NCBI GenBank assembly: GCA_963514005.1
Contig: OY740794.1
Span: 15,686,001-15,750,000, forward strand
Length of the DNA stretch: 64,000 bases
Reading direction: 5' to 3'
From: Raja brachyura
Lineage: Eukaryota
Numbering within the stretch: the stretch's first letter is position 1; every line of letters starts with the position of its first letter. Position numbers and translations under genes: made by a program. The notes beneath the pieces were generated by a model that was not told the origin of the DNA, did no database searches, and saw nothing but the letters and a program-made list of their open reading frames with translations. This document shows, one piece after another, positions 9,438 to 42,932 of the stretch.

Positions 9438-11640
9438 AATAGACAATAGGTGCAGGAGTAGGCCATTCGGCCCTTCAGGCCAGCACCGCCATTCAATGTG
9501 ATCATGGCTGATCATCCCCAATCAGTACCCCGTCATACCTTCTCCCCATATCCCCTGACTACGCTATCTTTAAGAGCCCTATCTTAAGGGGCTATCGCAC
9601 TTGGGCGACCTAATCCGTGAGTTCTGGCGAGTTTGCCCCCGACTCATACTCGCAGCATGGTCGACACAAGGTCCTAGGAGGTCTTTGTAACTCTCCTTCA
9701 TGCTCAAGAGTAGTCTCCATATACTGGAGGCCTCAGCTAGGTCGCGGCGTATATTTCAACATGTTGAAAAATGCACGCGAGTAAAAAAAGGTCGCCATGG
9801 AAAAAATCGATTTTTTTACTCGTAGGTTTAGTCGTAGTAAGTCGTAGTAGGTTGGCGTGTTATTCAAGGGTTGTCGATGGTAATCGAAGGTAGTCAAAGG
9901 TAGTCGTAGATAGTCTTCATCATTGTCGAAGGGAGGTCGAAGGAGGTCGTCTTCACTCTCCACTATTCGGTGTCCAATTTTCTCGAAGTTAGTCGAAGCT
10001 AGTCTTCAACATGGTCAAAGGAGGTCTTCTACATAGTTGAAGGAGGTCTTCAACGTGACATTTTTTCAAACTCTCCTAAACTCTTCTAAGCTCGGCAATT
10101 AAGTCGCCGCAGTGGGACAGCCCCTTTACTCTCTCTTGAAAGCATCCAGAGAACCGGCCTCCACTGCCCTCTGAGGCAGAGGATTCCACAGACTCACAAC
10201 TCACTGTGTGAAAAAGTATTTCCTCATCTCCGTTCTAAACGGTTTACCCCTTATTCTTAATCTGTGACCCCTGGTTCTGGACTCCCCCAACATCGGGAAC
10301 ATGTTTGCTGCCTCTAGCGTGTCCAAACCCTTAATAATCTTATATATTTCAATAAGATCCCCTCTCACCCTACTAAATTCCAGAGTATACAAGCCCAGCC
10401 ACTCCATTCTATCAACATATGATAGTCCCGCCATCCCGGGAATTAACCTACTCTGCACTCCCTCAATAGCAAGAATGTCCTTCCTCAAATTTGGAGACCA
10501 AAACTGCACACAATACTTCAGCTGTGGTCTCACTAGGGCCCTGTACAACTGCAAAAGGACCTCTTTGTTCCTATACTCAACTCCTCTTGTTATGAAGCTC
10601 AACATGCCATTCGCTTTCTTCACTGTCTGCTGTACCTCCATGCTTACCTTCAATGACTGACGAACAAGGACCTCCAGATCCCGTTGTACTTCCCCGTTTC
10701 CCAACTTGCCACCATTTAGATAACAATCTGCCTTCCTGTTTTTGCCACCAAAGTGGATAACCTCACATTTAACCACATTAAACTGCATCTGCCATGCGTC
10801 TGCCCACTCGCCCAACCTGTCCAAGTTAACCTGCATCCTCCTCACAGTTCGCACTGCCACCCAGCTTTGTGCCATCTGCAAATTTGCCAATGTTACTTTT
10901 AATCCCATCATCTAAACCATTAATATATATTGTAAATATCTGCGATCCCAGGACTGAGCCTTGCAGTACCCCACTAGTCACTGCCTGCCATTCTGAAAGG
11001 GACCCGTTAATCCCTACTCTTTGTTTCCTGTCTGCCAACCTATTTTCTATCCATGTCAGCACTCTGCCCCAAATACCATGTGCTCTAATTTTGCCCACTA
11101 ATCTCCTATGTGGGATCTTATCAAATGCTTTCTGAAAGTCCAGGTACACTACATCTACTGGCTCTCCCTTGTCCATTTCCCTAGTTACATCCTCAAAAAA
11201 GATTGGTCAAGCATGATTTCCCGTTCGTAAATCCATGCTGACTCGGACCGATCCAGCTACTGCTATCCAAATGTGCCGTTATTTCGTCTTTTATAATTGA
11301 CTCCAGCATCTTCCCCACCACCGATGTCAGGCTAACTGGTATATAATTCCCTGTTTTCTCTCTCCCGCCTTTCTAAAAAATTGGAATAACATTAGCTACC
11401 CTCCAATCCACAGGAACTGATCCTGAATATGGAAAATTGGGAAATGATCACCAATACGTCCACGATTTCTAGAGCCACCTCCTTTAAGTACCCTGGGATG
11501 CAGACCATCAGGACCTGGGAATTTATCAGCCGTCAGTCCCATCAGTCTACCCGGCACCATTTCCAGCCTAATGTGAATTTCCTTCAGTTCCTCCGTCACC
11601 TTGGCCTCTGGCCACTAGTACATCAGGGAGATTGTTTGTA
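9438..11640 (-). mobile_element. CR1/HER1-like LINE, ~1.7 kb of degraded ORF2 RT, interrupted by a MITE
   Basis: ORFs 10826-11176 (VDVVYLDFQKAFDKIPH...SGVLQGSVLG...KFADGTKLG) and 10201-10911; (ctattgt)n tail at the left end. Confidence 0.9.
9587..10125. mobile_element. PIF/Harbinger-type MITE, copy 2
   Basis: TTA|aggggctatcgcact ... agtgggacagcccct|TTA; internal gtcgtag/gtcgaag repeats; splits a CR1 3' end. Confidence 0.85.
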
Positions 11641-29368: not shown

Positions 29369-30870
29369 TTTGAACCCAAGGGGGACCAATATCCTGGCGG
29401 GGAGATTTGCAAAGGAGATTTTAAACTAGAAAGGCTGGGGGGAGGCACTCGGGTAGAGGGGGCTAGGGGCCAGGGTGTGGGGCAAGAGGCAGAGAAGGGA
29501 AGCACTCTGACCCAAAATGTAGGCGAGAAAGAGGAAAAAGATAATAAACAGAGAATAAGGGATGGTGGGTTTCTAAAATGTGTATATTTTAATGCTAGGA
29601 GCATTGTAAGAAAGGTGGATGAACTTAGAGCCTGGATTGACATCTGGAAATATGATGTTGTGGCAATCAGTGAAACATGGTTGCAGGAGGGCTGTGTTTG
29701 GAAACTAAATATTCCAGGATTTCGTTGCTTCAGGTGTGATAGAATTGGAGTGACCAGAGGTGGAGATGTTGCATTGCTTGTCAGAGAAGATATTACAGCA
29801 GTGCTTTGGCAGGATAGATTAGAGGGCTCGTCTAGGGAGGCTATTTGGGTGGAACTGAGAAATGGGAACGGTGTAGCAACACTTTTAGGGGTGTATTATA
29901 GACCGCCAAATGGGGAGCGAGAATTGGAAGAGCAAATATGTAAGGAGAGAGCAGATATTAGTAGTAAGCACAAGGTAGTGATTGTGGGAGAGTTCAATTT
30001 TCCAAAAATAGACTGGGAAACACATTCTGTAAATGGGCTGGATGGTTTGGAGTTTGTAAAATGTGTGCAGGATAGTTTTTTGCAGGAATACATAGAGGTA
30101 TCGGCCAGAGAAGGGGCAGTGCTGGTCCTCCTGTTAGGAAATGAGGCAGGTCAGGTGACGGAGGTATGCGTTGGTGAGCACTTCGGGACCAGTGATCACA
30201 ATACCATTAGTTTCAATATAATTATGGAGAGAGTCAGAACTGGACCTAGGGTTGAGATTTTTGATTGGGTAACTTTGAGGGAATGCGTAAGGATTTAAAA
30301 GGAGTGAATTGGGACATTTTGTTTTATGGGAAGGATGTAGAAGAGAAATGGAGGACATTTAAAGGGGAAATTGTAAGAGTACAGAATCTTTATGTCCCTG
30401 TTCGGTTGAAAGGAAATAGTAAAAATTGGAAAGAGCCATGGTTTTCAAGGGAAATTGGACACTTGGTTCGAAAAAAGAGAGATATCTACAATAATTATAG
30501 GGGGCATGGAGTAAATGAGATGCTAGAGGAGTATATAGAGTGTAAAAAGAATCTTAAGAAAGAAATTAGAAAAGCTAAAAGAAGATATGAGGTTGCTTTG
30601 GTAAGAAAGGTGAAAGTAAATCCAAAGGGTTTCTACAGCTATATTAATATCAAAAGGATAATGAGGGATAAAATTGAACCATTAGAGAGCCAGAATGGAC
30701 AGCTATCTGCAGAGCCAAAAGAGATGGGGGAGATATTGAACAATTTATTTTCTTCGGTATTCACCAAGGAGAAGGATATTGAACTCTGTGAGGTAAGGGA
30801 AAAAAGTAGAGTAGCTATGAAAACTATGAGATTCGAAGAGGAGGAAGTACTGACACTTTTGAAAAATCTG
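29369..30870 (+). mobile_element. CR1-like LINE 5' part: end of ORF1 plus APE endonuclease of ORF2, 3' half missing
   Basis: NPRGTNILAGRF (ORF1 esterase end); LKCVYFNARSI..K.DEL...DVVAISETWL...GVYYRPP...GEFNFP...GTSDHN; frameshift into ORF 30265-30942. Confidence 0.88.
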
Positions 30871-37350: not shown

Positions 37351-38589
37351 TCTAGGACTCGAGGGAGAGTTGGCCATCCATTAGGGCTCATGGGGCCTAG
37401 TCTATGATATTGACATTCTATCTGTACCATTTTCCAAAATCATTCCAGTATGTCTTAATTCCCCTCATGTCCAGAAATATATTAAACTCTGGTTTGAACC
37501 AACACCATGACTGAATTTCCTCTGGCCTCCAAAGGTTCACCAGTGGCAGCATAAAGAAATTTCTCCTCATTACTGAATGGTCCTTATTCTCATATTCCTT
37601 TCACTGGTCCTAGACTCCTCAGCCAGTGGGAAACATCTTCCTTGCATCTAAATTTTCAAGCCGCTTAAGATTGTATTATATTTTAAAGAGATCGCCTCTC
37701 TGTCTTTTTTTAAATTCTAGCACTTACAGTCCCAGTCTACACAATATTTCTTCATTCGGTAAACTGGGCCTCTCTGAAACCGGCCGATTGAATCTTTAAT
37801 GCCCTCTGGCAAAATATATCTTTCCGTAACTAAGGAGACCAAAACTCTACGCAATACGCCAAGGCTTTATACAAATTTAGGATGGCACAGCGGTAGAGTT
37901 GCTGCCTAAGCTGCAAAGAACCAGGTTCAATCCTGACTACAGGTGCTGTCTGAACGGAGTTTGAGCATTCTCCCTGTGACCTGCGTGGGTTTTCTCCGGG
38001 TGCTACGACACTCCAATTACGTACAGGTTTGTAGGTTAATTGGCTTTGGTAAAAAAAAAATTGTCCCTTGTCTGTGGGATAATGTTAGTGCACGTGGTGA
38101 TTGGTGGTTGGCACGGACTCAGTGGGCCGAAGGGCCCGTTTCCACGCTGTGTCTCTGAAGTCTAAATGCAAGACCCTTGTATTCAAATCCACTTACAATT
38201 CCCTAAAGTGCTTATTGCAACTATATGTTGGCTTTCAGCAACTTTTGGTTTGTGAACTGCACATAGGACTGGAATAATGAGATTCATACTTGCTGCACCT
38301 TTTCAAGCACATGAAATGCAAGAACACAAAAAATAAACATTTAATAAATTGGTGCGTAAGCCCCATAGTTTACTACTCAAACTAACAAAGCAGCTGCATC
38401 ACATTCTTAACTCAAATCTTGGCAAAACAAGGCCTTCAGCAGATTGAAATGTAAAGTTGTCGCACAAAAGATTTATTTCTCACTAAACTAAATCCCTGTC
38501 ACACGGGAGCCCTGGTCCCCCAATGCAACCCGTTCCCCAACGCAATATTCCACCACCCACCCATAGCCCCCACCTGCGCAGGCGCGGCT

Positions 38590-39340
38590 CATTTCCCCTC
38601 ATCCCCCGGAACTCCCTCCCCCTCCTCTTTATCCTCCCTCTTCTTTCCCCTCTCCTCCCCAATCCCTCCCTCACCTCTCCCTCCCTCTCCTTTCCCCTAC
38701 CCTCAGTCACTCCCTCCCTCCCTCCATAACTCCTCTCCCCTCCCTATCCCTTTTCCTCTATCCCCCACTCCTCGCCTCCCCTTATCCCCCCCCACTATCC
38801 CTCCTCACCTCCCCCACTTTCCCCCTCTCCCTCCCGACCCCTTCCTCTCCCTCAATCCCCTCCCTCCTATCTCTCCAGCATCTTTCCCCTCTCCTTCTCC
38901 CCTCCCCCATCCATCCCTCACCTCTCCCTCCCTTTTCCCTACCCTCAGTCACTCCCTCCCTCCCTACCTCCCTCCCTCCATCCATAAAAAGCATCATCTG
39001 CAGTTCCTTCCTCCATTGTTAGATGTGGTTTAGATCCCGTTGATGACGATTGGACCAGTTTGCATCACGTGTGTGAGTTAATCAAACGGCACACAAACTA
39101 CTCGGCCACCCTGCAACCCAACTCTCCCTCCCTCCCTCCCTCACTCTGCCCATTATGGCTGGGCCGCCGCTCGGCCTATCCCCGTCCTGCCCGCCCGCCC
39201 GCTGCTGCCGCTCTGCCCGTCCCTACCCTGCCCGCCCGCCCGCTGCTGCCGCTCTGCCCATCCTTACCCTGCCCGCCCGCCCACTGCTGCCGCTTGGCCC
39301 GTTCCCGCCCTGCCTGCCCACCTACATGCCTGCCAGCTGC
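38590..39340. repeat. CT-rich low-complexity tract and ~35-bp GC-rich tandem repeat inside the Helitron-like element
   Basis: Duplicated ccctcacctctccctcc...taccctcagtcactccctccctccc block; ccgctgctgccgctctgccc...ccctgcccgcc repeated at 39175-39330. Confidence 0.8.
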
Positions 39341-39358
39341 CGCCGTGGGTTGGGTGAG

Positions 39359-39436
39359 ATGGAGTTGGTGATCATCATGGTGGGCACCACGAGTTTCGAT
39401 GAGCTGGTGGAGAAGATCTACGAGAAGGCCATGAGG
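39359..39436 (+). pseudogene. ALG13: Captured ALG13-like exon 1 fragment: MELVIIMVGTTSFDELVEKIYEKAMR, followed by a GTGAGT donor
   Basis: VGTTSFD[DE]L is the N-terminal signature of ALG13 (human MKCVFVTVGTTSFDDL, recalled). Ends at a phase-0 consensus donor; no further ALG13 exons seen. Confidence 0.72.
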
Positions 39437-40679
39437 GTGAGTTACCGCTACAGCTGCGGCGGAGGAGACGGACCCGGGGGGACTGGTAGACGGGACCTCC
39501 ACTGCTGCAGCAGGTGGGAGAGAGGGGTGAGTGATGAGGGAGAGAGAGAGATGGGACCAGGGCCTTCACTGGGCCTCCACTGAATCCTCCCCCCCCCCCC
39601 ACGGCCGCCACCAGTGGTGGGAGAGACAATAAACAATTTACTGTGAGGAGGGGAGAGAGGAGTTTGTGAGTGAGGCGGAACAGGCCGCCACCGGTGGGGC
39701 AGGAAGTGGTGTCGCCATCCCGGCCTTGGCATTGAATGACAGGAGAAGAGACCAATCTGTGTGGCACTGACTGAAGGAATCAGCGCACGCGCGGGTTTTA
39801 AGATTTCTTAAACCTCGATAACTTTTACAATATAGCGCTTATCCGAACGGAACTTGTTACACTTGCAGCACAGGAGAACGGTGCGTAACCTGGTGAAAAA
39901 CCGTAGCTCTATCGCGTACCGTTTTTGTACAAATAGAAAAACCCCGAAATCCGGAAGAGCACAAGAGCACAGGATCAGAGTTTTAGTCATGTATAGATAG
40001 ATATCACCATTGTGGCAAATTCAGGGTATGGCTTTACTGCCTTGAAGCATTTACAGTCAGGCATTAACAGAAATTACAGAGAATGAAGTCTTATCTACAA
40101 ATAATATCTGGTGATACCATCTCATATGAGAGCACAGCCAATCTGAATCGTTCGAACCATACAATTGTACCATAGCCTTCTGAAGAGAATGAACAATTTC
40201 ATCATGATCTGGGTAACATTATAAGAAGTAGCTGATAATGGACCAGGAACTCAGGTGTGGCTGGCATGTAATTTTGTGTTCACTTTTAATAAAAATTTGC
40301 AGCTCGAAATTCGACTGCTGCAGAATCTTGATTATGAAGCCAACCTCTTTGCAAGAGCTCCCAAAATTAATATTTAAGCAGAATGAAGCAATATCATTGT
40401 TTAGTTGTAGTTTAGCAAATCAGCATGGAAACAGGACTTTCGGCCCACCGAGTTTCTGCCAACTAACGATCACCCACACACTAGTCTATCCTACACACTA
40501 AGGACAATTTACAGAAGCCAATAACAGACATTTACAGAACGTATAAACTTGCACCTGTTTGGATTGTGGGAGGAAACCAGAGCACCTGGAGAAAACCCAT
40601 GCATACACAGGAAGAATATACAAACTCCGTACAGACAGCACCCATGGTCAGGATCGAACCCGGGTCTCTCGGGTTGTAA

Positions 40680-41402: not shown

Positions 41403-41459
41403 GCCTGTACATGTAGTGGTAAATCAAACTGTTACTGTGATGGAGTGAAAGGCAACAAG
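41403..41459 (+). CDS. COL4A3: Collagen type IV alpha-3-like chain, exon 2 (7S domain): ACTCSGKSNCYCDGVKGNK
   Basis: ttcttccAG acceptor and GTAAGC donor; 57 bp, phase 0. CxCxxKxxCxCDGxKGxK pattern matches recalled human COL4A3 exon 2 (GCVCKDKGQCFCDGAKGEK, 57 bp) better than COL4A1 or COL4A5. Confidence 0.85.
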
Positions 41460-42399
41460 GTAAGCCAGCCTGTGACTGCTGAGGTTACAGCTCTTCTGTA
41501 GGTCAAAGTCATCCTAATACATGATCAAAGTTATGCTACTGAACTCAGTAATATCACAAATTACTGCATTAAAGGAACAGATCATGCTTTTAGTGAGAAG
41601 AAGATTCTAGCTACTTAAAAATTCATCAAAATTATTCTTTGTTTATATCGTATCTGATCCATAAAAGATTACTGTTTATCTATTCATTAGAAAACAAATG
41701 TAGCTCATGTAAAATAATGCATACAACTGCAGAAGAGAGAAATGAGAGAGAAATGTTTATGTAGATATGATATCCATTACGTAAGTTAATGCACATCACT
41801 GCACATCCTCAATATGTGGGAGAAGGCAGGTGCAGCCAGGGGAAAATCAGATGGGCACACGGAGAACATGCAAACTCTGCACAGACAGCACTAGAGGGTA
41901 GGATGGATGAAACTGGGAGACGGCAACACTGACTGCGGTGTCACTGTGCTGCAGACAGTTGTCTGAATGAATACATAAGAGCATTTAGTTATTCTGCAGG
42001 TCCTCTGCGGCTCAGACCCTGTAAGTTCCCACAGTAACAGGCCTGATTAGAAAAAAGAGTTGCTTCAAAGAAAACACAGTTAGTTAGGGAATAATCAAGT
42101 TCACAACTGGATGGTAAATATTCATTGCTTCAGTCAGTCTTAGATATAAAATATTGCAGTTCAGGAGAAGAATAGTTCACATGTTTCTCTTGTCCTGAAC
42201 TCGCACAATGTAAGTTGCACACAATTAACCTGCTGAATGTTTTCAATTGGATTAAAACTTGCTTTTTCTCTCAAAAATATTTGTTTTGTAGTTAAAATGA
42301 AAATTATCTTGAACTGAATTTTCAAATCAGGTAAAGAGGTTAACTGTGCCATTAATGCATCCCATGTCAGAATCATTGGTCCAGCTTGAAGCAGGTGAA

Positions 42400-42842: not shown

Positions 42843-42932
42843 GGTGAAAGAGGGTTAATTGGTTTCCGGGGCCAACCTGGGTATCCAGGGTTTCCCGGTA
42901 CAGAGGGTCCACAAGGCCCAGAAGGTCACCAG
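42843..42932 (+). CDS. COL4A3: Collagen IV exon 3: GERGLIGFRGQPGYPGFPGTEGPQGPEGHQ
   Basis: tttcttttcAG acceptor, GTAGGA donor; 90 bp; ten Gly-X-Y triplets. Confidence 0.9.

Follow-up and report, generated by a model that had tools for sequence, protein, structure and literature searches.

Helitrons that capture the 5′ end of a host gene and amplify it are already known from bats and frogs, and the skate element reported here reveals no new mechanism. The closest described system is HelibatN3, which carries a captured part of NUBPL in vespertilionid bats and for which, in the available parts of the two reports, exon trapping and host transcripts have been demonstrated (PMC4224331, PMC4778049). 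According to the accessible portion of a study of Xenopus laevis, the young Heli1Xen1 family holds 19 captured coding fragments in 64 insertions, 17 of the 19 from gene 5′ ends and none in more than 17 copies (PMC12001565). The skate element has the anatomy of HelibatN3, combining at high copy number the 5′ flank of a host gene with its first exon, the splice donor and part of the intron, but it involves another gene (ALG13, a housekeeping gene) and another lineage, it carries the whole 27-codon coding exon where the available accounts describe six NUBPL codons (PMC4224331, PMC4778049), and in its case exon trapping would be a prediction from sequence. It resembles Heli1Xen1 as a Helitron whose coding fragment comes from a gene 5′ end, but unlike that family it carries one fragment in what are likely several hundred older, decayed copies. 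In terminal features and target site the skate family agrees with Helraiser and other canonical Helitron1-type RepHel elements; however, Helraiser encodes a RepHel protein, whereas the ALG13 element encodes none and the partners we saw are broken. Our literature search, which covered few subscription papers, returned no report of a Helitron with ALG13 or of Helitron gene capture in a cartilaginous fish, and the present findings extend Helitron capture and mass amplification of a gene 5′ end from bats and Xenopus to that group.

The element lies in the stretch of 64,000 nucleotides analysed here (the window; G000:C14:15686001-15750000), at 38483-40001 on the minus strand. We are confident that it is a non-autonomous Helitron with a DNA copy of the ALG13 5′ end, that was captured once, with terminator read-through as the likely route, and has since spread to what are likely several hundred sites and decays neutrally there. 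The captured segment of ~620 bp (38988-39605, plus strand, antisense to the Helitron) corresponds to C13:8802704-8803264, with 419 of 516 aligned columns identical and profile matches at E 6e-64 and 6e-46 (30 kb around ALG13); a direct DNA comparison with the parent region gave 75% identity over 366 columns (E 1e-60). Aligned to the parent, it comprises a GC- and CpG-rich upstream flank with short tandem units (38988-39358), which would represent the promoter and 5′ UTR of ALG13 judging from its sequence, a copy of coding exon 1 (39359-39436), and a phase-0 donor GTGAGT (39437-39442) followed by the start of intron 1, ~130 bases of which can be aligned (39437-39605). The exon copy encodes MELVIIMVGTTSFDELVEKIYEKAMR directly before the GTGAGT; it keeps its ATG, has no stop and holds 26 codons, a 3-nt in-frame deletion separating it from the 27 codons of the gene. 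Parent exon 1, MASVFVTVGTTSFDELVEEISSERAVR|GTGAGT, lies at C13:8803051-8803131 within a CpG island, and the window peptide matches it at 17 of 27 residues (E 2e-9, 30-kb subject).

The parent gene itself is intact on this other contig, with exons 2 and 3. The PF04101 profile identifies the two exons at C13:8808950 and 8811493, exon 1 lying 5.9 kb upstream. Exon 3 matches yeast ALG13 structures (E 3e-5), and all ten proteins found with exon 2 among 16 candidates contain PF04101; as far as the shortened names show, each is called ALG13 or UDP-N-acetylglucosamine transferase in one source or more. The best of these is a Leucoraja record at 93%, which makes a skate the likely source of the DNA, in keeping with the cartilaginous-fish setting that the original prediction had proposed. 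Neither the 26-residue peptide nor parent exon 1, when compared on its own with Pfam and PDB, matched ALG13, the queries being too short; in a protein search with the exon-1 peptide of a less decayed copy, all six proteins found among 11 candidates were named ALG13. The prediction had read the peptide, the adjoining donor and the ALG13 identity correctly, and its proposal of capture at the DNA level also holds, since the start of intron 1 is present in the element and exon 2 is absent. We looked for a missing ALG13 match, for a single copy with neighbouring ALG13 exons and for unshared termini, and found none of the three. Conservation of the exon in sharks and platypus shows that the transfer went from gene to element. 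Intron 1 of the parent holds a GC-rich tandem repeat of ~1-kb extent (C13:8803290-8804280), which begins right where homology to the element stops and may have replaced intron sequence still kept in the adjoining arm of the element.

That arm (39606-39745) is specific to the ALG13 subfamily, 23 of the 30 loci found with it holding the exon; it has no match within 30 kb around the parent gene. It is followed outwards by a generic 5′ arm of ~260 bp (39746-40001), which locus comparison shows to be common to sister subfamilies and RepHel-bearing elements. On the other side of the cargo lies a GA-rich low-complexity arm (38571-38987), which is present too in elements without ALG13, and then the subterminal region and 3′ terminus (38483-38570), as delimited by comparison with family copies and folding. 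The 5′ end reads A(40002)|TCTATCTATAC on the minus strand, which taken from end to end opens A(40002)|TCTATCTATACATGACTAAAAC and closes ...GACAGGGATTTAGTTTAG|T at 38483. Its terminus A|TCTA-TCTATAC (39990-40001) contains one TCTA unit more than the minimal family start, TCTATACATAAC at 39997. This extra unit is likely part of the element: the empty site of another copy, L128, places the extra TCTA units of that copy within the element, and ATCTAT directly precedes the downstream 20-mer in 19 of 30 loci (picked by that 20-mer).

The same boundaries recur elsewhere in the genome. Among the 29 other copies compared, similarity ceases at 39993-40004 in 22 and extends past in none, and in 25 similarity begins at 38487-38517; together with the Helitron termini common to the copies, this upholds the element and the minus-strand A|TCTAT end as originally proposed. 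Family copies end at the 3′ side in GGGACCC-AAC-GGGTCCC-ACTTAGT-CTAG|T. Another, distinct Helitron of the family within the window closes with the same hairpin plus CTAG|T (14503-14532, plus strand; folding at -8.6 kcal/mol, z -1.96), and this 3′ end, which had served as reference terminus in the original prediction, stands as such. The window copy itself agrees only in part: its 3′ end is degenerate, GGGA-TTTAGTTTAG|T, with the hairpin deleted and TTAG|T(38482) where the family has CTAG, and it is likely immobile. Elsewhere in the family the hairpin folds at z -2.14 in L104 and weakly in L018 (z +1.15). The 3′ part of the second Helitron (13870-14532) contains tandem units of ~45 bases and matches the 3′ ends of the RepHel elements L088, L093 and L099; its 5′ end was not found within 6 kb upstream.

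The family shows the canonical Helitron features of an A|TC 5′ end, a CTRR|T 3′ end and a hairpin ~10 bases before the 3′ end. Pattern calling, which mis-picked several ends, gave 45 3′ ends from 64 family loci, with CTAG|T in 30 and T as the next base in 40. Under stricter patterns, 17 copies retained both ends, with A before 13 of them and T after all 17; their flanking direct repeats measured 0 nt in 13 copies and 2 nt in the other four, not above the level of mismatched pairs. When each flank was searched separately, the matches lay next to each other for four copies among the 17; two of these cases are clean paralogous empty sites and two are unclear. L128 had inserted between the A and T of a repeat that is found unbroken at 31 places, and L131 has a clean A|T empty site at one place. 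The family thus inserts between A and T without target-site duplication, as the original prediction had expected of TC...CTAG ends; an empty site was found for these two copies and not for the window copy. For the latter, a local flank search gave overlapping artefacts only, and no empty site occurs among the 15 joints listed of ~1500 in four related species, none of the listed contigs joining the flanks. Helentrons, or Helitron2 elements, are defined by subterminal inverted repeats and T-run targets; this assignment was rejected on the TC...CTAG ends and the A|T target.

Amplification throughout the genome, also anticipated, is borne out by several counts. DNA searches returned 585 and, in a second search, 661 candidate loci; 40 of the 585 were scored and 30 fetched, providing the 29 copies compared with that of the window. 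An exact exon 20-mer occurs at 139 places, an exact 5′ 20-mer at 1034 and a 3′ 22-mer at 2839, with controls at 0. Dividing motif counts by the share of copies keeping the motif (7/34 and 13/59) gives ~675 and ~780 copies of the ALG13 subfamily, both figures being rough, and the cassette is therefore likely to be present at several hundred places in all, with 139 as a minimum. Among the first 30 loci bearing the 5′ motif, five belong to this subfamily (four with the exon, one with the exon deleted). Five of seven exon-less loci that carry the subfamily arm keep pieces of the ALG13 flank, and so are deletion derivatives rather than precursors. At C14:44586940-44955394, at least six ALG13-motif matches on the same strand are spaced ~70-83 kb apart, and these copies arose by tandem segmental duplication rather than transposition.

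A larger sister subfamily, with 1227 candidates, makes up 16 of the 30 loci that share this 5′ motif. Its GC-rich cargo (L052:1813-1950, L046, L056 and others) reads ATG, ~45 codons and GTGAGT in several copies and is a candidate for another first exon taken from a host gene. A search for its parent found none, all 30 fetched genomic matches of the cargo bearing the Helitron 5′ arm, and eight candidate proteins included no homologue. Head-to-tail junctions of the form CTAG|TACATAAC were seen at L039, L054, L067, L104 and L132, and in decayed form in L047 and L119. At such a junction the 3′ end of one Helitron abuts an A|T four bases within the 5′ end of another (TCTA|TACAT), and insertion of the family into itself in this way could be the origin of the (TCTA)n runs found at the 5′ ends.

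All copies derive from one capture, because they share four exon differences from the gene, each in 50-55 of 58 copies. One of these, Glu at codon 2, is ancestral, as Leucoraja and several sharks still have it, and at this position it was the gene that changed after capture; Glu19Lys and Arg24Lys are residue changes that arose in the element founder, and the fourth is a silent CpG change. Since then the captured exon has decayed neutrally. Change rates at codon positions 1, 2 and 3 are equal, at 80/1291, 74/1348 and 69/1123 (6.2, 5.5 and 6.1%). Purifying selection on the exon was considered on account of a pN/pS of 0.68 by plain counting and rejected, as the signal was gone once the observed mutation spectrum was applied; nonsynonymous to synonymous changes then stand at 0.94 of expectation in 27 copies chosen by other means than exon DNA and at 1.14 in 57 copies (L053, a 41-nt partial match, being left out of these counts). 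Of 30 copies selected through exon similarity, 24 retain ATG, frame and donor together, whereas 6 of 28 selected in other ways do so. CpG positions have changed 3.3 times faster than others (369/1746, 21%, against 392/6130, 6.4%), which points to methylation of the copies in the germ line. With regard to age, contigs from the single-copy flank reach more than 31 bases into the element 3′ end in the related organisms B and F, so that the window insertion is common to relatives whose flanks are ~3-8% different and would predate the split from these two species; in organisms D and E the flank contigs stop at the element junctions. Exon depth is far above the single-copy level in all four relatives.

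The enzymes that would have moved these copies were sought among the 96 matches to PF14214 in the genome. We fetched 20 stretches, 19 chosen from those matches plus an extension of L048, and found no intact RepHel frame in them. Three elements (L104, L094 and L098) combine PF14214, Rep or helicase motifs and both family ends, with the RepHel broken in each. The PF14214 match of L104 has E 1e-36, and its last 30 bases agree with five family copies at 25-28 positions; the corresponding figures of 22-24/30 for L098 and 17-19/30 for L094 are at or below the membership line, and the 5′ ends of these partners match the family at only 22-25 of 30 bases. In L048 the same 5′ motif is joined to a helicase remnant whose best PDB match is Helraiser (7LCC, E 1.4e-8). 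The stretch L048:1500-2500 (C1:11.33 Mb) shows, in order, the 5′ motif, a promoter-like stretch with GCCATGGA|GTGAGT and the helicase C-terminal remnant, and from this arrangement L048 is likely to be an internally deleted autonomous element. The ALG13 Helitron would be mobilised in trans, by the RepHel of elements that share its ends.

The window copy lies within intron 1 of a plus-strand type IV collagen gene, with the captured exon in sense. Exon 2 of the host gene, with a phase-0 acceptor, is at 41404-41460 (plus strand), 1.97 kb downstream of the captured donor, and exon 3, the first Gly-X-Y exon, at 42843-42932; further Gly-X-Y exons follow, the window spanning the gene from intron 1 to about exon 10 (exons in 41404-63999). 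Seven candidates for collagen exon 1 passed a loose filter; the exon with the signal peptide is likely the one that lies within a CpG island at C14:15676869. NC1 exons at C14:15.84 Mb clearly assign the chain to the alpha1/3/5 class. The gene is one of a head-to-head type IV collagen pair at C14:15.47-15.85 Mb, its partner being on the minus strand, and is likely COL4A3, by elimination and by a synteny that we take to hold for these genes. Two more type IV collagen pairs were seen, on C6 and C13.

How the ALG13 5′ end entered the element admits more than one answer. It was taken up once, and a terminator that was read through is the likely cause. Read-through that merely ran on to a cryptic terminator would not suffice, because the 3′ end is the family's own rather than a new one, and we lean towards a composite capture, in which end bypass would have proceeded from a Helitron 5′ end once present in ALG13 intron 1 and been completed at a family 3′ end upstream of ALG13, on a donor allele that would since have been lost. 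End bypass is an experimentally shown capture route, as stated in the available part of PMC4778049. There is no Helitron end in the 30 kb around the parent exon, and the capture route is therefore unreadable from the locus. Filler DNA is sequence copied into an existing element during break repair or template switching, and copying of the ALG13 piece by this process into the middle of a short Helitron, with no Helitron beside ALG13, would agree with that absence; it would also agree with the occurrence of the 5′ arm, GA-rich arm and 3′ end in elements without ALG13, and with a joint skipping 38750-39661, which reaches high depth in the two runs X10 and X12. We consider this origin possible but doubtful, as the exon-less loci that might have passed for precursors are, in five of seven cases, the deletion derivatives noted above. 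Donors are mostly missing in bat captures as well (26 cases without adjacent Helitron ends and three with, according to the available part of Thomas et al., in which the term "filler" is absent; PMC4224331). A processed pseudogene, a SINE or a real second ALG13 gene would account for a coding exon that has an ATG and a donor, but the probability of such an origin is negligible: the exon runs on into intron 1 sequence, exon 2 is missing, the processed or retroposed forms were rejected on the lack of joined exons, poly(A) and target-site duplication, the PF04101 exons (profile positions 32-122) are on C13 with none on C14, and the exons around the element are those of collagen.

Whatever the route of the composite or other capture, the window copy might have acquired a function of its own. 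Both the captured donor and the start of collagen exon 2 are in phase 0, so a transcript spliced between them would stay in frame and lack the signal peptide, and to judge from sequence the copy could act as an exon trap for exon 2. If domesticated, it would serve collagen IV as an alternative promoter and first exon, giving a chain without signal peptide. Sense orientation and the distance of 1.97 kb between the two phase-0 sites agree with such a role, as does the intact ATG, frame and donor, a state found in 6 of the 28 copies that were selected by other means than exon DNA; the likely orthologous contig of organism B differs at 4 of 249 positions against 56 of 1614 (3.5%) in flank contigs (P 0.065). 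However, sense orientation and phase 0 are common by chance within a collagen gene, CpG observed/expected has fallen from 0.82 in the gene to 0.56 in the window copy, with 7 of 32 CpG positions changed as in other copies, and the exon departs from the gene at 10 of its 78 bases, with residues altered by several of these changes. A weak search also gave no chimeric protein among the six protein matches of the captured peptide. We therefore judge domestication very improbable. A wider reading, in which skate Helitrons form a third vertebrate system spreading cassettes of promoter, first exon and donor, with some ALG13 cassettes acting as live exon traps and the sister subfamily perhaps carrying a second first exon, is speculative and rather unlikely; if true, in-frame splicing would join the window copy to collagen IV exon 2, with a chain lacking the signal peptide as product, and other copies would change the wiring of host genes.

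For annotation, users should be aware that ALG13 exon-1 matches in skate genomes are mostly transposon copies. The several hundred copies of one CpG-rich promoter region, beside an essential parent gene, also make methylation, silencing and occasional exaptation measurable. The window contains further repeats, which include a CpG-rich region with repeated units and donor-like sites inside the same collagen intron (450-1600); its frames gave no Pfam match, and it is likely another mobile element. LINE remnants with reverse transcriptase and endonuclease matches occur at 10829-11206, 17724-18755 and 29369-30295.
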